This document shows, one piece after another, positions 1,845-55,368 of a stretch of DNA of 64,000 bases. Each line of letters starts with the position of its first letter. Position 1 is the stretch's first letter. Below the pieces are notes generated by a model that worked only from the letters and a program-made list of their open reading frames with translations, had not been told where the DNA came from and made no database searches. A program made the position numbers and the translations under genes. The stretch lies in assembly GCA_964016885.1 (NCBI GenBank), contig OZ024754.1:42594001-42658000 (forward strand), written 5' to 3'. The stretch is from Eledone cirrhosa (lineage: Eukaryota).

Positions 1845-1920
1845 CTTGATGGAATAAGCCAATTCAATTTGCTGGCGGATCCCAAGATACTCAGTAAGGC
1901 TACCAACAATGACTGCATAC
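1845..1920 (-). CDS. RMDN3: RMDN gene internal exon (YAVIVGSLTEYLGIRQQIELAYSIK); gene continues beyond the window start
   Basis: AG acceptor, AAG|GTAAGT donor, 76 nt, phase 2 to 0; matches the RMDN W-YA...G...I...IK segment. Confidence 0.93.
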
Positions 1921-3181: not shown

Positions 3182-3348
3182 CATTTGTGAGCACTGGACG
3201 AGTTTACATTCAATGCAATGGAGGCATTAGCTAAATCTCTGGCCACAAGTAGAAGACCTTTCTTTTCTTCACTTTGAGGTTTATGAGTTTCAGCCATTTG
3301 AAAAGTGGATTTGGAGAGGCGCCAATGGAAATCAATGTTGCCTTCATA
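3182..3348 (-). CDS. RMDN3: RMDN gene internal exon (YEGNIDFHWRLSKSTFQMAE...EEKKGLLLVARDLANASIALNVNSSSAHKW)
   Basis: ttttcag acceptor, TG|GTAAA donor, 167 nt, phase 0 to 2; WRL and AHKW motifs typical of RMD1/2/3 proteins. Confidence 0.93.
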
Positions 3349-6864: not shown

Positions 6865-7057
6865 CTTTTCTTTGGTGTCTTGGAGTATTTGATGTGCTTT
6901 CTTTCGGTCGTTGACACTTCCTTCCATGAGGGTGTCAACTTTGAGGAAAAAGGTATCACCACCTTTACCACCGACAATATCGTAGAAGCCATCAATATGC
7001 TCGCGGTGGGCCGTCGGTGATTCTCCAACTTTAGGATTCTTTACATCAAACGTCCCG
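6865..7057 (-). CDS. RMDN3: RMDN gene internal exon (GTFDVKNPK...FFLKVDTLMEGSVNDRKKAHQILQDTKEK)
   Basis: tttccag acceptor, AAG|GTAAGT donor, 193 nt, phase 2 to 0; the sequence resembles the start of the RMD TPR-like domain. Confidence 0.9.
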
Positions 7058-11954: not shown

Positions 11955-12008
11955 CTTTTGTCTTTCCGCAGACGAGCTCGAGTCCGAGAGGCTGAATTAT
12001 TGGTTGCA
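11955..12008 (-). CDS. RMDN3: Probable 54-nt frame-preserving exon of the RMDN gene (ATNNSASRTRARLRKDK)
   Basis: Long pyrimidine tract plus CAG acceptor (minus strand cttctctattttctatttttctttttatttattgataatcag), AG|GTAAC donor, open in phase 2, CpG-rich patch in an AT-rich intron. Confidence 0.6.
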
Positions 12009-35361: not shown

Positions 35362-35411
<50 letters not shown>

Positions 35412-35418
35412 AACTTAC

Positions 35419-35672
35419 CCTCCTAGCGCATCCTGATACTCCTCATCTCCGCTACTCCCCACCGGGGAATAATTCCTCTTCACAGCATTAACTTCTTTCA
35501 AACTATCGACTTGGTATTTCAATTCATCGATCTTTATGAGCAAGTTTTCCAAAACTCCAAAAACATGCCTATCGTGTGTGTATTTCATGAACAGGATAGA
35601 TCCTCCGGCACCGAGGATGAATCCTACTCCAAGAGCAAGGAAAGTAGCAGAGGAGGCTTTGAACAGCATCAT
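35419..35672 (-). CDS. RMDN3: RMDN2/3-like (regulator of microtubule dynamics, PTPIP51 type), coding exon 1: TM anchor, coiled coil, FFAT-like motif
   Basis: ATG at 35672; reads MMLFKASSATFLALGVGFILGAGGSILFMKY...LENLLIKIDELKYQVDSLKE...SSGDEEYQDALG; ends GG|GTAAGT (phase 2), matching the phase of the exon starting at 7057. The symbol is nominal: an invertebrate gene is likely co-orthologous to RMDN2 and RMDN3. Confidence 0.88.
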
Positions 35673-35752
35673 CTCCGCTCCGACCAGCAATGGTAAAAGG
35701 TGGTAAGGGCACCAGTGGTACGATGTCTACTGCTGTCAAATGGAGTAGCCAT
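35669..35752 (-). promoter_or_regulatory. Upstream ORF (27 aa) whose stop overlaps the RMDN start codons
   Basis: atcATGG start at 35752; MATPFDSSRHRTTGALTTFYHCWSERR then TGA inside ATGATG. Confidence 0.55.
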
Positions 35753-36681
35753 GATCGACAGTCCTAAGGCACTCTTCATATAACGCATTGTCTCAACAAA
35801 TCACGCCCCTCCACTCAGCCACAACATTTTTACTGCTGCTGATCTCACAATCTCTACACTTTCTATCGTTGTCACTCTAATCGTAAAATTGACAATAGCA
35901 AACCTTTATCTCATTGCCATTTAATGGACGTGATATATATCTCGAAATCAGTTTTAATCTACATCATACTCCATGTTTATTTCTCGGACTAAATGTTTAT
36001 CTCTTTTAGTAAAAGATCGTCGTGGATACCTCTTTTTAGCAAAGAGTTCTTCCTTTGAATTTCTAAGAAATTTAAGTATGGTAAACCAAACGTATTATAG
36101 TTTATTTTAAATGGGGGAAAACCATGATGAAAAGCTTAAAACCTTCTCCTGAAAATTTCAAAGAAAATAATAGATATAGATATCCATTTATATGTAAAGC
36201 TTACATATATGAACAAACTTGCTTTCTAGCAAATGTGAACTACCGTGTTTACTATAACTTATTTACGAGAATGATTTGGGGGAAAATTATACAAAGATAC
36301 TTTCTACACCCAAAACAAATACTTATGACATGCTGACATATTTAGTATAATGAGCCAAAAATATTCCACTTCACTAAAAGTATACTTATAATTAACTGAA
36401 CAGACAATATTTTATTACTTCTAGTCAAGAAAGACAAGGGAGGCAAGTCCGACATTTCAATTAATTTAAAATTTAATGTAGATAAAAAGTTGGGAGTGAA
36501 TCTAGTCTTTGGCAAGTATGGTTTGGTTTTATTAGATTTCACCAACATTTTCCCTCTTGTAGCTTCAAACAATTAAGACCACTGTCCATTAATATGCCAC
36601 ACAACACTCTACATTCCTATTGTGAAAGACAGCATTACTGACTGACTAAGAAGTTTGGATAAGTAATGGAAGTAATGAAAT

Positions 36682-37200
36682 TGTGTACAGTGCTCAGGTG
36701 CACTACAACTCATCAAAGGTGCATGTATAGTACATAGAATAATTGTTTCTACTTTTGGCACAAGGTCAGCAATTATCCCAGTGCATTACTAGTGCTTCAT
36801 TTTATCGACCCCGCCAGGATGAAAGGTAAAGTTAACCTCGGCGGGATTTGAACTCAGAACTTAAAGGGCCATAACTCTATGCTGCAAAGCATGGTGTCTG
36901 ACGCTCTACCGATATTGCCAATCCACCGCCCTGTACAAAAGTCAGGAAAGTGAACAGTGTATGAGTCATGATACATACACACAGACATGTGTGTGTGTGG
37001 AGGGGGAATATTAGATGTAGTTTTGGCGAATTTCAGGAAGCATGGAAGTTTTGAAGGATGCATGTCCCAACAGCTAACAACTGATGCAGGTAGTTTGTTC
37101 CATGCTTCAGCAACTCTGAGTGTGAAAACATGTTTCTGAAAGTCATGGGAGCTGTACTGTTTTCTGATTTTGAAAGCATGTCCACAGGTGTTAGACATAT
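36682..37200 (-). mobile_element. CR1-like LINE 3' end interrupted by a SINE (about 36742-36931)
   Basis: GHAFKIRKQYSSHDFQKHVFTLRVAEAWNKLP; colinear with the 60112 copy on both sides of the SINE. Confidence 0.8.
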
Positions 37201-39719
37201 GTGTAAGTGGCATTTACCATAACCCTTTGGTTTACTTGTGCCTTTTGACTGTGTTAGACCACAGATAGATATGTTAGACGAGAAATAGATATGATAGACC
37301 AGAGATAGATGTGTTAGACCAGTGATAAATATGTTAGACTATGTTAGACTGTGTTAGTCCAGAGATATGTTGGACTGTGTTAGACTAGAGAGAGATATGT
37401 TAGACCAGAGATAAATATGTTAGACCAGAGATAAAGAATTTATAATCTTCAATCCACATGAAGCCTGCAAGATTTGTTTGTGCAACCCAGGGCTGGATTA
37501 ACGTTTAAGTCAAATAAGCACATAGATTGCAGACGATCAGAGTTTCAGTAATCTTTCAATAAAATTTATGAAATTCAATTTAATCGGTTACTTTTTTGTG
37601 TGAGTGGATAATAATTGTATTTTTGTGTGACAAAAGATTAATATTTAATAAATTCAGGGTTTTTTTTTTCAAATGAGGCTCACTGTATTCCATGTAGTTT
37701 TGAGGGAGAAAAGTTTGCCTACCCTTGCATTAGACAGTCATAAAATCTGTCCCTGTTATGGTATACACCCTCACTGTGAACACAAATAATATTTTCCCAA
37801 TTTAACAAATCGTTACCGAGTTATACTTAAAACAACATTTACTGTAGTTTTTAATAAACCAGATATAATTATTTAAATATTCTAAAAACATCTTCAACTT
37901 TTTCTTTATACAATATTATCTAAATTAGCTGATTCTGTTTTGGTTTCAAAAAATCACCATCTTATTAATAAAGCTCAATAAATTATTGGTACTAACGATT
38001 AGTGTCTTATTAATAAAGCTGAGATAAAATATTTGTTTTAGGTATTCTTTGCCTAACGGTGAGAAATCCCACTTTAGTATAATGGGTAAGTTTAATTTAG
38101 TTATAACCTTTGATGTTTGTTGATAATTATCTCCCTTGGATTTTTGGCTTCGCACGAGAAATTTATTTATTGTTAATCGGCTTCCCGCTCCGAAAATTGC
38201 TGGCCATGTGCCTAAATTAGAAAATATTGTTGAATAACACTTATTAGTCAAGTGATGATCGTGAGGGTGTTTGGTTAGTTCCTCGCCTTAGTTTCACTAT
38301 CACCCATAGCAATTCTATGTCTTGGCATGTCTGTAAAATATTTAGAGACGAACACCAACATTCCCTGTTATAACATAAATTAAGTGTGCTATTTTTTTCT
38401 CTGGTTAATTTCTATTCATTCCAATCCCCCTAATGTAAGACTGAAATTCTAGATCCTATCATAAGCTCAAAGCCAATCCTTCTTTTCCTGCTTGCTTCCC
38501 ACTGGAACTCATTCTCTACATTCAGCTATAATTTAGTGTGTGATGAGTGGACTGGAGCAGTTTGAAATAAAGTGTCTTGTCTAAGGACATGATACCTTGC
38601 TGGAAATCAAATTCATGACCTTATGGTTAGGACTAGTCAGAAGCAGCAGGGGACAACTGTCAATGTACATTTCAGGCTTTGGCCATCTGCTTCTGCTGGA
38701 ATCCACTAGATAGCGCTAGATGTCATCAGCCTTTTAATATTCATAGCTGGAGAGCTTTTCAAAATGTTTATTTATTAAAGATTATTTAGTTCATATTCCT
38801 GCATAGGAGTAAATAATAAAGGCGATAGCAAGCTACTATAAGATAAGGAGACAAACAAAAGTAGAAGGGTTCCAAATAGTATAGGGATAAATAGCAAACT
38901 ACCACAAGCCAAGGGGATAATAGCAGTATCGATAGAGAGTCAGACGCTATGCTTTGTAGGTCAACTCCAGGTAGAAATTGGACCAACTATGATGAAAGCT
39001 TTCCAGGCCACCATCATCATTATCATCCTCATCACCATAATCATCATCATCATCATCATCATCATCACAAGCTAGCAGGCCAACCTATGATGAAAGCTTT
39101 TCAGACCACCCATCATCATCATAATCATCATCACAAGACAGCAGTAATTCGACCAACCAATGATGAAAGTTTTCCAGTTCAGACCATCCATCATCATCAT
39201 CATCATTGCCGTTTAATGTGCATTTTCCCCATGCTAGCATGGATTAGATGAGTTGTCCTGTTGTGAGAAATTCCAGGTCAGGTGACCTTGTCTTCATTAT
39301 ACAAAGCTGATTTTGTTTTGTTTTGTATTATTTTGTTTTGTAAATCTCAACTGCATTGTTATTGTTCAACTATATTCTTCAATTCCATTATATGTTGCCA
39401 TAGAAACATCCTTTAACACATCTGTAGAAAGAATCACCAAAAATAATAAAAGACTTCTTAGGGTACAGGGAATTGTTAGACTTATGTCAGTTCCTCTAAG
39501 TGTTTCAGTTTATTGATCAATGGAACAGCCTCCTTGTGAATTTAACGTCTCATACAAATAACATATTTTCATTGCAATAATAAAATCTCTCTTGTGACGC
39601 TAAACTCCACCAGTTGCAGACTGCGCATTAACATGTGATATCTCTCTCCACAAAGTTCAATCACCAACAGCAGAGTTCAAAGAGCAAAGTTCAAGTCCAG
39701 TCCATGAATTGACATTATC

Positions 39720-40110
39720 AAGCCATCGTTTTGCCTGCTGGCCTCTGCTTCTCTTACCAGCCAACCTTCCTTCCAGCAATATATAATACCTTTCGATCAC
39801 CAGCAGCAGAGTTCAAAGAGCAAAGATCAAGACCAGTCCATAAGTTGACATTATCAAGCTATCTATCGTTTTGGCTGCTGGCCTCTGCTTCTCTTTCCAG
39901 CCAACCTTCCTTCCAAGAATAACCTACTTACATCATGAATTGATCTTTTTATATGACCGTATAGTTTGAGTACACTTGACTTCACAATTGATGTAATTGG
40001 TCTAAGTTTAGTAATATTGAGCATCTCACTGATACAGATATGGTCGCTGAGCCGCTTGTCAGTCATAAGTCTCATGGTGTGGTTCTGGAATGTAGAGAGC
40101 TTTTGAAGTG
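39720..40110 (-). mobile_element. Degraded RTE-like LINE fragment with an internal duplication
   Basis: LKLYGHIKR...LFLEGRLAGKRSRGQQPKR motif; the segment near 39660-39780 is repeated near 39800-39915. Confidence 0.6.
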
Positions 40111-41175
40111 ACCTTGTTGTCCAATAATAAAATACAATTTTAAAAAAAATAAGATAAAAACATTTGAATCAATTTAAAAACTGCTGTACAATTTGTTAAA
40201 TATTCTTTTAGGAATATTGTTTTAATATATATTGTTTAGGTCAAAATCTATGCCTATGTCATCATTTTTTGTTATCAACGGTCTGAAACTATCCTGGTTT
40301 TATGATACAAATCTGCCCAATTTAAAATCTTTATGTTTATATTAAAGCCCAGCATAATAGTTTTATTTAAGAAAATTTTATTAAGTAATGCTTCAAACAT
40401 TAGCCATAACTCTGGACATGTTTCAATCTTGTTTGACCTCCTCAGTGAAGCCTAATCTACTCAATGACTGCCAAAATTGCAGAAGAACACCTAATAGACA
40501 TAGTTTGATTTGTTTATATATATAAGGGATATTCACTGATTAGGAAAATTAAAATAATGATATTAGAATATTTTCCAAGACTGGCATTAGCACAAAGAAA
40601 ATATATTTAAGTGCAAGCTACCATATTTGATGTGGTGAGCTATAAATAATTTTTAATCAGCTGAAATTATAACCCAAATTTTAAAATAACAATAATAATA
40701 ATAATGATGGATTCTACAATAGGCACAAGGCCAGCACTTTGGGGAGAGGGGGAAGTCAGTTAAATGGATCCCAGTGCATTACTGGTGCTTTATTTTATCG
40801 ACCCCATAAGGATGAAATTAGCGTTAATGAAAATATATTCTCTGAAGAGATAAAATAAAGGTCTCTCAACATTTCAATCAACTAAAAATTAAATAGCAAT
40901 ATACAAGGTGGAGAGAGTGATCCTGCTGTTTGGCGGCCGTGGTGACAACTTTGAACATGTTTCGGTAGTATTGGCTCTCCTTAGCGAAACATAATCCACA
41001 TTGTAATTTATTTAGTTTTTTTCCCTATACGCAATTGCTTCCGTAAAAATTTACTTCGTATATGTGCTTCCGTAGGTTCCAGAACGTTGTCAAGCAAGGT
41101 TGATAAATATCGTAAATCTATCAGTAGAATAGTTTATATGAACGGCTGATATCAGGAATAATTATTATATACAGG

Positions 41176-41211
41176 ATGCCGTATGTACTCGTAAGCACCC
41201 AGATCAGATTG
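41176..41211 (+). CDS. GCHFR: GTP cyclohydrolase I feedback regulatory protein, exon 1 (MPYVLVSTQIRL)
   Basis: aggATGCCG start; near-identical to the GFRP N-terminus MPYLLISTQIRM; TTG|GTAAGT donor, phase 0. Confidence 0.95.
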
Positions 41212-41833
41212 GTAAGTTGGACAGATCTCTTTTTTAAAATTAAAAGATATCAGGGAATATAGTTAGTTGTATTATTTATTTAAAACAACAGTGACAGCAG
41301 CTGTAAATGAAAGCAACATGTATTACTAAAAAAAATAACAAATCCACTATTTACGCTCGAACTATTTAATAATTAATCTGTGCCCTCTTGTAGTTAAACA
41401 TTGTCTGAACATTGCTAGAGGGTGACACACTCTGGTGTCAGGTTTTCCTAAATCAATTGCCCTTTGACCCACTACCAAAACTCAATTTGTTTCAAACGAG
41501 ATGTGGTCCTGGTAGAGAGAAAAGCAGGAGAAGGCGGGGTTGTAATTAATAATTATAAAGATTTATTATCTAATTACTCGCAGACTTCCAGTTTGTGGAT
41601 TGTAAACAAATGACCATTTCCTTCAGCGAATCTTTCCTTTCTTGTTAACAAGAATGCTCAGTCCTTCATTTTAAATATTTATCATCTTACAGAAATATTT
41701 CTATCTTTAAGGATTTTTTCTGTCTGTCTATTTGTTTATTTTTTCTACTGGGTTAAAATTCCGTCTATTTGGGACAGCATGTTCTTGTTCCACATCAAAA
41801 CAGTGATTGAAACACATTAGAATCAATACTCCA

Positions 41834-48552: not shown

Positions 48553-49940
48553 TAGATATATTTCTTTATTAGCCACAGGGGCACAAAAGAAGGGGACAAA
48601 TACAAAGGGGGAAGTTTACATACAATAAAAACGTGTAAAATGTTATCACAGATGGAATTTAAAAGTTAGTCGATTTTCCCCAATAGAGGGAGACAGTTTA
48701 TATGGGTAACACAGACCCCCAAAAAAAATGTGCAACCCTCATCTCCAGGAGTACGAAGAGCTTGTACTCCTTTCCTCTCCTCCTCCTTTTCCTCAACCTA
48801 CAGGCTGATATAGAGAGAAGGCCCATTCACTCGGGCCATTCTCGCCACTTTCACCCACCTTTCATAAAACTTGCTGGGGTACAGCACCTCTCTCTCCATC
48901 CTGATTCTTCATAGATAGATAGATAGATAGATAGATAGCTTGTGATAAAGTGTGTCAACGTTCTATTCTCCTTTAACCTATATTTATTTTCTTCATTCAA
49001 ATGGTTGGCATCTTCCACATACAATGTCTCCCTATTCTAGCAAAGAACCCCCTTCCACACTCCAAAAATGAACAAGAAATGAAACCTTATTTTGACTTTA
49101 TGTATTTAAAGCAAGGCATTAGAAAAATTACAGATGTTTTCTTTGACCGAAATGACACCAAACCATCTGAAACGACAGCAGTTTTTATGATTCAAAACTA
49201 TTTGTTTCAGTGAGTTTATATTTGTCTAAAAACCTTCCACTATAATTATATGTAAAAACATTTAAGTTATGTTCCAAATACCAGCATTAATAGCAAGAAA
49301 TCCCTTCAAATTCTTGAGTATTTTCAAAATGATATGAAAATGTGTCTTTCATTAGAAAGATGGTAATAAAATGGATAAACTCCATTCTGTTGCCTGCATT
49401 TCTCTAGAACTTACCAGCTCCATTCTTGAAATTTCTTTAGAACTTATTAGCTCCATTCTTGAAATATCTTCACAACTTACCAGCTCTGTTCCTAGAATTT
49501 CTCTAGAACTTACCCACTCCATTCTTGAAATATCTCCAGAATTTGCTTGCTTCATTCCTGAAATTTCTCCAAAACTTACCAGCTTCATTCCTAAAATTTC
49601 TTCACAACTTAGCAGCTCCATTCCTAAAATATCTCTAGAACTTACCAACTCCATTCTTTTCTCCTCCTTTTCATTTATTTCCATTATTTCAAGAGAAATT
49701 CAACAACTGCAGCCTTCATTGTCAAAACCATTTTCCCCTCTTTTAAGCTTCTTTTCTTGCAGGAGTAGTTCTATTATACAGTCACACAGACATTGTTTCG
49801 CAAACACGAAGTCTTGAGTTCTATCTCACCATGAGGCTCCTTCAGTAAATGTCTTTAACTATAGCCACAGACTCACCAATGCCAATTTGGAAAACAGAAA
49901 CTGTAGGAAGTCTGTTATGTATGTGTGTGTATATATATAT

Positions 49941-50937
49941 AGAGTCAGAACTGGATGGAAAAAGTTCAGAGAGCTTATACCACTATTAGCCGCTAGAGGG
50001 TTCTCCCTAAAAATGAAAGGCAGGTTATACGATGCCTGCATACGAACAGCAATGCTGCATGGCAGTGAGACCTGGGCACTGTGTGCAGAGGATATACGCA
50101 GACTAGAGAGGAATGAAGCTTGCATGCTCCGCTGGATGTGCAATAGTAATATACGTGAACGGCAAAGCATAAACGAACTAAGGAAAAAATTAGAAATAAG
50201 AGGGATCAGATGTTGTTTACTCGAGAGAAGGCTACGTTGGTACGGTCACGTGATGCGCATGAAAGACGACAGCTGTATAACAAAGTGCAGGGCAATAAAG
50301 ATAGACGGTAGCCACGGAGTAGGCAGACCCAGAAAAACATGGGACGAGCTGATAAATTCCGACCTCACACGCTTACACCTCTCCAAGACAATGTCACTGG
50401 ACCGAGACCTTTGGCGGTACTCAGTAATAGAGAAGACCCGCCTTACCTAAATACAAAGTAAAAACCTACTACAGTCAGTAGGCATCTCTATCAAAACACA
50501 CCCCCGTCCCACCACCTCCACCCCACCCACACCGCCCCTTTCAATGTAAAGTTATGTTGGTCCCACAACATCCAGGCCGAAACAAATGAGATCGTGTAGG
50601 TGTCACGACAAAAAACACACAGTCCACGCTGTAAATGTGGCCGTGTAGGCAACACGGTAAAAACCTCCCAGCCCCACACTGTAAATGTGGTTGGTGTTAG
50701 GAAGGGCAGACAGTCCACGCTGTAATGTGGCCGTGTAGGCAACACGGTAAAAACCTCCCAGCCCCACACTGTAAATGTGGTTGGTGTTAGGAAGGGCATC
50801 CAACTGTAGAAAACCCGCCAGACAGTCCTATGCGAGCAAGACAACCACTCTTGCCTCAAGTGGGAAAACCCCCGTCCAAACCCATGCAAGCATGGAACAC
50901 GGACGCTAAACCTGATGATGATGATGATGATGATGAT
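49941..50937 (+). mobile_element. 5'-truncated RTE-clade LINE: C-terminal ORF, 3' UTR and (GAT)n tail
   Basis: Open frame to 50450 with LHGSETW, RLRWYGHVMR and GRPRKTW; (GAT)n tail at 50913-50937; embedded in (TA)n. Confidence 0.92.
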
Positions 50938-51455: not shown

Positions 51456-52320
51456 CAGGGTGCGGACGATATCTGTTCGCAAGATTACTGTCTAGGATTA
51501 TATAACACAGAGGTTTTATTTTTTAAGATATATTTATCAAACTTGGGTCAGTTTGTCTTCATGACTTGTTCTTTCGATCTCACTCGATAAACCTGCATTG
51601 GCGGCCTCGGAACCAGCTACAGGCCGTCGTCACTGTCCCCCGACTTAGGCCCCAAAAGGCACTTGTGATCCTGGCCTTCAAATCGTCTTTCGTATTGCAG
51701 CTAGATCTGTTGGTGTCTCATTCCACTGCGCCCCACACAAAGAAGTCGAGGGGGTTGCAGTCAGGTGAGCTGGGAGGCCAGATGTCAGGTGAAGTGTGGC
51801 CGACGAAGTTCTCTGACAGCCAGGCTTGGGTCTTTCGGCTGGTATGTCTGAGTCTTGCTGCCACATGTACGGCCTACCTGCAGCTACCTGGTTGATCCAG
51901 CGCTTTACTACCTTGCTCAGAACACGGATATAGCCATCGGTGTTCAGATTGAGGCCCTCAGGGAAGAAGTGAGGTGGCATGACGTCACCTTGACTGCTGA
52001 CGACACCTAAGACCAATGTTGTCGCTGGAAACTTTGTCTGCATGACTCTGGGCACATCTTTGGATGAGACAGCGAGCCACCTGTTGTTCTGGGAGTTGAT
52101 CTTCTGGTCTTATTTGTCCTCCTGGCGCGGATTCCAAGAAGAACTCCGTGTCTCTTCCACAAATTTGGAGGTTCAAAATTATTCATAATCAATTATTCTG
52201 AAAATAAATAATGGAAATATAGTCACTGTTTTTATGAAGACAAGAGTGACAACGGAAGTAAAAAAAAATTTGCATAAAATTAGCAGTTGAAAATTGCGAA
52301 TAGATATCGTCCGCACCCTG
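51456..52320 (-). mobile_element. Internally deleted Tc1/mariner-superfamily DNA transposon (maT/DD37D-like)
   Basis: TIRs CAGGGTGCGGACGATATCT(G/A)TTCGCAA at both ends, TA on both sides; frameshifted transposase with PPHFFPEGL, WQQDS and WPPSSPDCNPLDFFVW. Confidence 0.92.
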
Positions 52321-54483: not shown

Positions 54484-54578
54484 GAGAATGGACCAACTAT
54501 GGTTGGAGATGAATGGAACGATGTGGAGTTGATGGAATATCTTGGAGCTAGTCTATGCAAAGAGCTTGGCACTAACTA
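54484..54578 (+). CDS. GCHFR: GCHFR exon 2 (ENGPTMVGDEWNDVELMEYLGASLCKELGTN)
   Basis: tttcag acceptor, TA|GTAAGT donor, 95 nt; GPTMVGDE motif characteristic of GFRP. Confidence 0.96.
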
Positions 54579-55196: not shown

Positions 55197-55368
55197 CATT
55201 GAATACCGAACCCCAGATCCGCCAAGAACCGTTCTGAATAAACTGGAATTGAGAGGCTATTCCATGGCTGGCATGGCCGGAGTTGGTCAAACATGCATTT
55301 GGACCATGCATAAACCAGCAAGTAAGGAAGATAATACAACTAACTCAAATGCAACAAATGGTTTTTAA
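55197..55368 (+). CDS. GCHFR: GCHFR exon 3 (YIEYRTPDPPRTVLNKLELRGYSMAGMAGVGQTCIWTMHKPASKEDNTTNSNATNGF*)
   Basis: ttgcag acceptor, phase 2; DPPR.VL.KLE.RG and GVGQT..W..HK motifs; TAA at 55366-55368; total protein 100 aa. Confidence 0.95.

Follow-up and report, generated by a model that had tools for sequence, protein, structure and literature searches.

In the window, the 64,000-nt stretch of Eledone cirrhosa DNA that was analyzed, an RMDN gene on the minus strand (ATG at 35672) faced GCHFR on the plus strand (ATG at 41176), 5.5 kb apart. Both genes were intact and no gene was found in the spacer, which bore out the earlier description of a head-to-head pair with nothing recognizable between. 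The RMDN gene consisted of 10 GT-AG exons in a single open frame of 372 aa, 5 of them within the window and the other 5 up to 7.2 kb to its left, and its product was identical to Octopus bimaculoides XP_014772191.1 at 346 of 372 residues. Exon 1 encoded an N-terminal hydrophobic anchor, a stretch that looked coiled-coil-like by eye, and a candidate acidic FFAT-like motif at residue 78. The Kyte-Doolittle hydropathy was 2.08 at residue 11 of homologue P0001, whose N-terminus is near-identical and whose first 32 residues are those of the window gene. Exon 2 is likely skippable, because the two Octopus isoforms, of 372 and 354 aa, are 18 aa apart in length. The TPR domain matched PDB 7CC7 (E 9e-37). 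A PF21033 profile search of the genome returned no match because the RMDN exons are too short, and protein queries were substituted. The coordinates of all features are listed in the table.

Features of the RMDN-GCHFR locus (window coordinates)
Feature	Position	Strand	Evidence or remark
RMDN exons 6-10	3.7-7.2 kb left of window	-	outside window
RMDN exon 5	1845..1920	-	protein alignment to genome, splice sites
RMDN exon 4, TPR domain	3182..3348	-	PF21033 match weak (E 0.024, under cut-off)
RMDN exon 3, linker plus TPR domain start	6865..7057	-	protein alignment to genome, splice sites
RMDN exon 2, 54 nt	11955..12008	-	protein alignment to genome, splice sites
RMDN2/3-type coding exon 1	35419..35672	-	tblastn 94% to homologue P0001; splice sites; hydropathy; motif score
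RMDN 5' UTR, lower bound	35673..36019	-	X19 contig spans 35419-36019 with 0 differences and stops there
Spacer, 5,045 nt between transcript-contig ends	36020..41064	.	X19 contig ends
Interspersed repeat, ~540 nt	36663..37201	.	87% identical to copies elsewhere; very high contig depth
Interspersed repeat, ~540 nt	39582..40125	.	86-91% identical to dozens of copies; LINE 3' end-like by eye
GCHFR 5' UTR, lower bound	41065..41175	+	spliced X19 contig reach; CpG-rich, o/e 1.61 in bin 41000-41199
GCHFR coding exon 1, 12 codons	41176..41211	+	GT donor 41212; X19 contig departs from genome here
GCHFR exon 2	54484..54578	+	PF06399 37 bits
GCHFR exon 3 with stop	55197..55368	+	PF06399 54 bits; PDB GFRP chains E 1e-10

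GCHFR comprised 3 exons with an open frame of 100 aa, or 99 aa if an alternative acceptor 3 nt further (54487, also in frame) is used. Exons 2 and 3 both scored above the curated GFRP (PF06399) cut-off of 25 bits, and the C-terminal tail was about 16 aa longer than in the PDB GFRP chains (83-84 aa). The genome-wide search gave GFRP matches at this locus only, and a GTP cyclohydrolase I family gene was present on contig C4 of the same genome. A homologue search of the protein collection gave no GFRP candidate, and a metagenome scan gave four loci, two of which were a GFRP last exon on 1.8- and 5-kb contigs without RMDN and two spurious. An intron directly upstream of the GCHFR ATG, where TACAG occurs, was considered and set aside, as the X19 contig was unspliced across the site.

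The subfamily of the RMDN gene was determined on a tree of 58 rows. A 99/96 split placed it on the RMDN2/3 side, apart from the RMDN1 group, and joining it to RMDN1 was disfavored (AU p = 0.018); the tree was unrooted and deep branches within the RMDN2/3 side were weak. The genome's own RMDN1 was located on a separate contig (C1:116.53 Mb) and fell in the RMDN1 group. By these sequence comparisons the window gene is of the RMDN2/3 type and RMDN1 is excluded, so that the earlier assignment stood and the grouping with RMDN1 that would have spoken against it did not appear. The database label "RMDN1" on the octopus protein is therefore misleading and is corrected here. The octopod gene is co-orthologous to both RMDN2 and RMDN3, which are ohnologs with rows in the supplement of PMC7530604, rather than to RMDN3 alone. 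The N-terminal hydrophobic anchor was found in 73 of 90 RMDN2/3-side vs 4 of 29 RMDN1-side proteins. On an ad hoc FFAT-like score, values of 2.5 or below occurred in 33/91 RMDN2/3-side proteins, 0/29 RMDN1 proteins and 0.3% of shuffles; the window gene scored 3.0, outside this cut and equal to the RMDN2/3-side median, and alpaca RMDN3 scored 3.25. The predicted layout resembled that of the ER–mitochondria tether PTPIP51/RMDN3 (PMC9473665; PDB 7CC7), with an N-terminal anchor, a coiled-coil-like stretch and a candidate FFAT-like motif followed by the TPR domain. PTPIP51/RMDN3 is longer (~470 aa), whereas the octopod protein has a short linker.

X19 contigs matched the first exons of both genes with 0 differences and departed from the genome at both splice donors, apparently reflecting splicing and expression of the two genes, although run X19 is not on record as RNA. 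The two spliced contigs were separate and stopped at 36019 and 41065; such ends cannot fix transcription starts, and the contigs give no expression levels. Contigs of another organism, outside repeats, matched only 35410-36108 and 40945-41233 among the matches listed. The CpG observed/expected ratio was 1.12 at the RMDN end and 1.61 at the GCHFR end, and below 0.6 in 20 of 23 middle bins. The two contig ends, together with CpG-rich ends around a low middle, suggested separate promoters. None of the 12 spacer ORFs (stop-to-stop, at least 60 aa) matched Pfam, and Rfam gave 0 spacer matches at E ≤ 1. The spacer taken whole was single-copy within the assembly, with two high-copy 540-nt repeats inside it. 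Low-copy sequence at 37800-38199, in mid-spacer, reached CpG ratios of 1.38 and 1.19; this patch could hold a shared element. The first introns of RMDN (23 kb) and GCHFR (13 kb) were much longer than the spacer and full of simple and interspersed repeats.

The same two gene families have been found adjacent in distant animals. In supplementary file 4 of Robert et al. 2022 (PMC8851819), RMDN2/3–GCHFR–DNAJC17 is block 519, classed as "Planulozoa novel" and assigned to the cnidarian–bilaterian ancestor. Among the rows listed, the block occurs in 7 of 49 species, 6 of which hold both RMDN and GCHFR. Rows of the two are consecutive in 5 (Acanthaster, Acropora, Branchiostoma lanceolatum, Nematostella and Lingula, g16935/g16936), which corresponds to adjacency if row order is gene order; the table carries no strand (PMC8851819). 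The trio is present in cnidarians, a starfish, amphioxus and a tick, and the RMDN–GCHFR pair in Lingula; the Ixodes gene ids run GCHFR, DNAJC17, RMDN, which puts DNAJC17 in between (PMC8851819). The Nematostella block gene, EDO32079, clustered with P0098 on the same side of our tree as the octopod gene. RMDN2/3, GCHFR and DNAJC17 are unmentioned in the main text of that study.

Among vertebrates, the order FAM82A2(RMDN3)-GCHFR-DNAJC17 was reported in Xenopus, anole, chicken, mallard, mouse and human (Jönsson et al. 2011, PMC3229566), so the human neighborhood invoked in the earlier note is confirmed in print as to order. In this tetrapod region, RAD51–(CYP1C)–FAM82A2/RMDN3–GCHFR–DNAJC17, the RMDN2/3-type gene lies directly beside GCHFR as in the octopod; in contrast, no RAD51 was found in the 264 kb examined around our locus. 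The same FAM82A2(RMDN3)-GCHFR-DNAJC17 order was found in goat. Human RMDN3 and GCHFR are presumably head-to-head, the published source having shown order only. In zebrafish, FAM82A2 is on chromosome 20, and GCHFR and DNAJC17 are elsewhere with CYP1Cs; stickleback was described as similar (PMC3229566).

In E. cirrhosa, DNAJC17 was located at C14:40.81-40.82 Mb, on the 46-Mb contig that also carries the pair, at a distance of 1.8 Mb. It was identified by its J-domain, otherwise annotated just as DnaJ, and by PDB 2D9O (DNAJC17; E 2.5e-4); a further DNAJC17 exon matched 2D9O only at E 1.5. Multi-exon Rad51-family genes were on contigs C1 and C12, and the aldose epimerase family was on contig C6. 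Block 519 was defined by at least three genes with at most five intervening, and the octopod, with no DNAJC17 nearby, retains only the pair and falls under that threshold. The block has no cephalopod row, and no mollusc, annelid or vertebrate row among those listed, with 4 molluscs surveyed (PMC8851819). This absence is weak evidence, because the method needs three genes and it also missed, among the rows listed, vertebrates with the known trio. Likewise, GCHFR, GFRP and RMDN have no entry in seven supplementary files of PMC9023564, as expected of a three-gene method, and the pair had no match in one small supplementary file of PMC9068888.

The lack of a listed mollusc row, and of a spacer-bridging read or contig among the matches listed, would fit either misassembly or a reunion of the genes by chance within the lineage. 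We regard this as the least probable account. The same two subfamilies are adjacent in cnidarians, deuterostomes and a brachiopod, DNAJC17 is on the same contig, and an error or reunion would need to recreate a known ancient pair. The 264 kb examined was gap-free without any N, which eased the concern over misassembly. The published tables supported inheritance of the adjacency, with neighbors in cnidarians, an echinoderm, amphioxus, a brachiopod and tetrapods. The earlier claim that it was kept since the bilaterian ancestor was supported as to inheritance but too young in its date: the linkage predates bilaterians (Acropora, Nematostella) and was part of a trio with DNAJC17. Its survival in a coleoid genome is not unusual either, as 275 metazoan microsyntenies are retained in the bobtail squid Euprymna.

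Conserved ancestral microsyntenic pairs (CAMPs; Irimia et al. 2012, PMC3514665) are likewise unrelated genes in several lineages with a short spacer and 5'-5' orientation, the last in 55% of human CAMPs. Linkage of orthologous unrelated genes in at least four lineages, by which CAMPs are defined, was found here in cnidarians, echinoderm, amphioxus, brachiopod, tick, tetrapods and octopod, the count being taken from published tables with our genome added and the 5'-5' orientation seen only in our genome.

Taken together, we consider it probable, with some reserve, that this pair of unrelated housekeeping genes is an inherited remnant of the RMDN2/3–GCHFR–DNAJC17 trio of the cnidarian–bilaterian ancestor, kept by a short inter-promoter stretch that is rarely broken and not by a common pathway. 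Each gene would have its own promoter; breaks near either promoter would be harmful while mid-spacer insertions would be tolerated, and any co-expression may be passive, through a common open chromatin domain. Each product likely performs its usual function independently of the other: RMDN would be a membrane-anchored organelle tether, and GFRP would act in feedback regulation of GTP cyclohydrolase I.

A doubtful but possible alternative is that this ancient pair stays together through a shared cis-element co-regulating both genes, either an enhancer or a once-bidirectional promoter. Ancient 5'-5' pairs in general are co-expressed above controls and richer in intergenic enhancers (PMC3514665), which favors real co-regulation and counts against the reading preferred here. 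The microsyntenies retained in Euprymna are also co-expressed above random, the RMDN–GCHFR junction outlived the DNAJC17 link in the octopod and apparently in Lingula too, and the CpG-rich mid-spacer patch is unexplained. On the other hand, the contig ends, which cannot show starts, were 5,045 nt apart with two repeats between, far over the <1 kb bidirectional-promoter criterion and unlike HSPE1–HSPD1 with its shared promoter of <1 kb (PMC3514665). Zebrafish has separated the genes, with stickleback described as similar, Ixodes ids place DNAJC17 between them, and literature searches found no paper on RMDN–GCHFR co-regulation. The earlier proposal of shared cis-regulation linking the tether to tetrahydrobiopterin (BH4) control is thus not supported so far.

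BH4 is a radical trap. According to its title, PMC11811300 has RMDN3 moving lipid radicals at contacts. We consider it highly unlikely that the RMDN2/3–GCHFR junction, older than the cnidarian–bilaterian split, owes its survival to a single shared element co-regulating the brake on BH4 production and the ER–mitochondria tether as an unrecognized module against lipid-radical damage.

We also think it unlikely that the locus is a target–bystander block, with GCHFR enhancers in the RMDN first intron, or vice versa with RMDN enhancers in that of GCHFR. The length of both introns would suit it, and the reciprocal separation in teleosts (PMC3229566) may resemble the dismantling of such blocks after genome duplication. 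Nevertheless, the introns are full of repeats, no entry for the pair turned up in the supplement of PMC7530604, and the usual target is a developmental regulator (PMC3514665), which neither gene is.

With retention by a rarely broken inter-promoter stretch as the preferred reading, the new element is the cephalopod case, in which the pair survives with DNAJC17 1.8 Mb off; the linkage itself was already catalogued. A coleoid is thereby added to a pre-bilaterian block, and block 519 is tied to the tetrapod RMDN3–GCHFR–DNAJC17 region, omitted from the published table among the rows listed. The broken junction differs by lineage: DNAJC17 was separated off in the octopod and RMDN3 in zebrafish, and the order was shuffled in the tick. 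The trio therefore offers a small natural test of co-regulation vs a rarely broken stretch. Its impact is modest, as reports of 795 groups of comparable ancient pairs already exist; though real, the pair is of an ordinary kind, of which hundreds are known. At 90 kb from the locus, HAD hydrolase and DcpS genes also faced each other, about 6 kb apart, and short spacers look normal in this neighborhood.

The RMDN2/3-type gene (RMDN) and GCHFR, whose product GFRP belongs to PF06399, were located on C14:42,594,001-42,658,000 of the 3.0 Gb assembly, and the starts and opposed orientation assigned to them by the earlier note were correct, with intact exon models (see table). The RMDN product was identical to Octopus bimaculoides XP_014772191.1 at 346 of 372 residues (93%), which makes an octopod the probable source, and GCHFR exons 2 and 3 both scored above the PF06399 cut-off. 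As had been claimed, no gene was recognised between them: none of the 12 spacer ORFs of at least 60 aa matched Pfam, and the spacer matched no Rfam family. Human RMDN3 and GCHFR are presumably also head to head. GFRP regulates GTP cyclohydrolase I, and that family was present on contig C4.

A gene-dense stretch was found right of GCHFR (C14:42.659-42.748 Mb, pieces L013-L021). We take its FAD oxidoreductase to be L2HGDH-like and its HAD hydrolase to be HDHD5-like; the latter and DcpS formed a head-to-head pair with roughly 6 kb between them, an approximate distance with first exons not fixed. Left of RMDN, only transposon remnants were recognised.

Features of the RMDN-GCHFR pair, its neighbours and related loci (bare coordinates are window positions)
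Feature	Position	Strand	Description
RMDN	start 35672	-	10 exons, GT-AG ends, single open frame of 372 aa
GCHFR	start 41176; exons 41176-41211, 54484-54578, 55197-55368	+	100 aa
Interspersed repeat	36663-37201		~540 nt, 86-91% identical to copies elsewhere
Interspersed repeat	39582-40125		~540 nt, 86-91% identical to copies elsewhere
FAD oxidoreductase	from ~65 kb		right of GCHFR
IF-2 gene	within 100 kb right of GCHFR		MTIF2-like
EF-hand gene	within 100 kb right of GCHFR		one 237-aa frame
HAD hydrolase	within 100 kb right of GCHFR
DcpS	within 100 kb right of GCHFR
DNAJC17	C14:40,810,299-40,819,405 (L033)	-	J-domain exon and further exons; match to PDB DNAJC17 chain 2D9O, E 2.5e-4
RMDN1	C1:116,528,113-116,540,318 (L037-L039)	+	falls with bovine RMDN1

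NCBI names the octopus protein RMDN1 for two species but "2-like" for another. A HMMER search listed 150 representatives; 145 of 154 proteins, those with enough TPR domain, entered a first tree, and the final tree comprised 58 rows, namely 56 hand-picked across the first, the window gene and the second RMDN (C1:116.53 Mb). In IQ-TREE these rows split with support of 99/96 into sides of 21 and 37, the tree being unrooted. Bovine RMDN1 and the C1 gene were among the 21; the 37 included the window gene, alpaca RMDN3 and orang-utan RMDN2, together with lamprey, tunicate, amphioxus, starfish, annelid, limpet, arthropod, Nematostella and sponge proteins, and the branches linking phyla within this side were mostly unstarred. 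A constraint placing the three cephalopod rows within RMDN1, a set drawn after the first tree, was rejected (AU p = 0.018). The split and the AU test placed the window gene outside RMDN1 and supported the proposed RMDN2/3-type identity; grouping with RMDN1, named beforehand as a refuting outcome, was not found. The NCBI name RMDN1 on C14-type octopus proteins is therefore misleading. Table S6 of PMC7530604 gives RMDN2 and RMDN3 as an ohnolog pair, which makes the octopod gene a co-orthologue of the two.

Protein architecture agreed with the split, as an N-terminal hydrophobic stretch was commoner on the RMDN2/3 side (73/90 versus 4/29 proteins). On an ad hoc score of our own, an FFAT-like motif passed the cut of 2.5 in 33 of 91 proteins on the RMDN2/3 side, 0 of 29 on the RMDN1 side and 0.3% of shuffles; the window gene, at 3.0, was outside this cut. 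PTPIP51 (RMDN3) carries a targeting sequence, a coiled coil, an FFAT motif and a TPR domain, and VAPB is a binding partner (PMC9473665). The roles of RMDN and GFRP in this octopod are presumed from family knowledge.

Robert et al. 2022 (PMC8851819, supplementary file 4) catalogue the trio RMDN2/3-GCHFR-DNAJC17 as block 519 ("Planulozoa novel") and record the block for 7 of 49 species. The table gives no strand, and row order was taken as gene order, as the Lingula and Ixodes identifiers suggest. The order is RMDN, GCHFR, DNAJC17 in Acropora, Nematostella and B. lanceolatum, and reversed in Acanthaster (XP_022101310/311 consecutive); in Lingula, g16935 (RMDN) and g16936 (GCHFR) precede two reductases, the Ixodes rows run GCHFR, DNAJC17, RMDN, and Exaiptasia has RMDN and DNAJC17 rows without a GCHFR row. 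The Nematostella entry EDO32079 fell in the cluster of representative P0098, on the same tree side as the window gene. Such blocks numbered 162 in real and 17-25 in shuffled genomes (PMC8851819). Among the rows listed there was no mollusc, annelid or vertebrate; the method requires three genes, and it clearly misses cases, because RAD51-[CYP1C1]-FAM82A2-GCHFR-DNAJC17 (FAM82A2 being RMDN3) is reported for four tetrapods (Xenopus, anole, chicken, mallard), while mouse and human show that order minus CYP1C1 (Jönsson et al. 2011, PMC3229566). A goat gene table agrees (PMC10763158). In zebrafish the linkage is broken: chr 20 carries FAM82A2, GCHFR and DNAJC17 adjoin the CYP1Cs, and stickleback is called similar (PMC3229566). 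With the pair or trio in other phyla, inheritance of the linkage is near certain; chance adjacency or misassembly is very improbable, and less likely than either retention by a promoter-flanked junction or shared regulation, both considered below. The proposal that the pair was kept since the bilaterian ancestor thus stood as to inheritance, with an older date, for the cnidarians Acropora and Nematostella also have the trio.

In this genome, DNAJC17 was on the same contig and strand as RMDN, on the RMDN side of the pair, with some 1.8 Mb separating it from the RMDN 3' end; this layout would not result from the tetrapod order by a single simple inversion. Rad51-family multi-exon genes were on C1 and C12, with a single weak exon on C14 8 Mb away, and the aldose epimerase family was on C6. 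Therefore only the RMDN-GCHFR pair remains.

The class of ancient gene pairs is already well known: 795 groups are described, with 55% of the human ones 5'-5' (PMC3514665), and Euprymna has 275 metazoan microsyntenies (PMC9023564). Block 519 is catalogued without discussion in its paper (PMC8851819). Among openly accessible papers on GCHFR with RMDN3, microsynteny, DNAJC17 and CYP1C synteny, judged mostly by listings, none dealt with how deeply the pair is conserved or whether its genes are co-regulated. The occurrence in a cephalopod, and the connection it makes with the tetrapod region, seem to be new, though of minor weight.

Evidence on the gene starts came from contigs of four runs. Run X19 (0 differences from the genome; not on record as RNA) gave contigs over 35419-36019 and 41065-41212, both departing from the genome at splice donors, with spacer-side ends 5,045 nt apart. 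The genome match of RMDN contigs from two other studies stopped near 35870-35980, and in the fourth run, from another organism, 35410-36108 and 40945-41233 were matched by two separate contigs among those listed. These ends are a hint, not proof, of two separate promoters, because contigs cannot fix transcription starts and most pieces are unlisted. CpG o/e was 1.12 and 1.61 at the spacer ends and below 0.6 in 20 of 23 middle bins. The two repeats indicated that the middle of the spacer tolerates insertions.

The pair may have been retained because a short junction flanked by promoters would rarely be broken without harm, and co-expression of the two genes would be at most passive. We favour this reading, with some reserve, because the starts are distant, repeats have inserted, a neighbouring pair is similarly spaced and some lineages have the genes apart. 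Shared regulation would fit ancient 5'-5' pairs as a class, which show higher co-expression and carry more enhancers (PMC3514665), and the low-copy patch at 37800-38199 (two bins with CpG o/e of 1.38 and 1.19, noisy at 22-32% GC) is a candidate shared element; but the contig ends are far apart, repeats lie between them and the genes are separated in some lineages, which makes shared regulation rather unlikely. A block held by intronic enhancers has a lower probability than either the promoter-flanked junction or shared regulation, and is improbable.

By eye, retroelement-like and transposase-like frames were seen in GCHFR intron 1 at 49818-50450 (+) and 51678-52109 (-), with no Pfam match at E 0.01. 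Outside the window, 30-40 kb to its left, lay a frame for a LINE reverse transcriptase with a PHD-finger match (L007:9037-9999) and a Tc5 transposase DNA-binding fragment (L006:8882-9436). Compared with the 83-84 aa PDB chains, the GFRP frame at 55197-55368 was longer at its end by about 16 residues, a polar, Asn/Thr-rich tail. A near-identical animal-type GFRP last exon was carried by two metagenome contigs (L028, L029), which are likely host DNA and too short to reveal neighbours.
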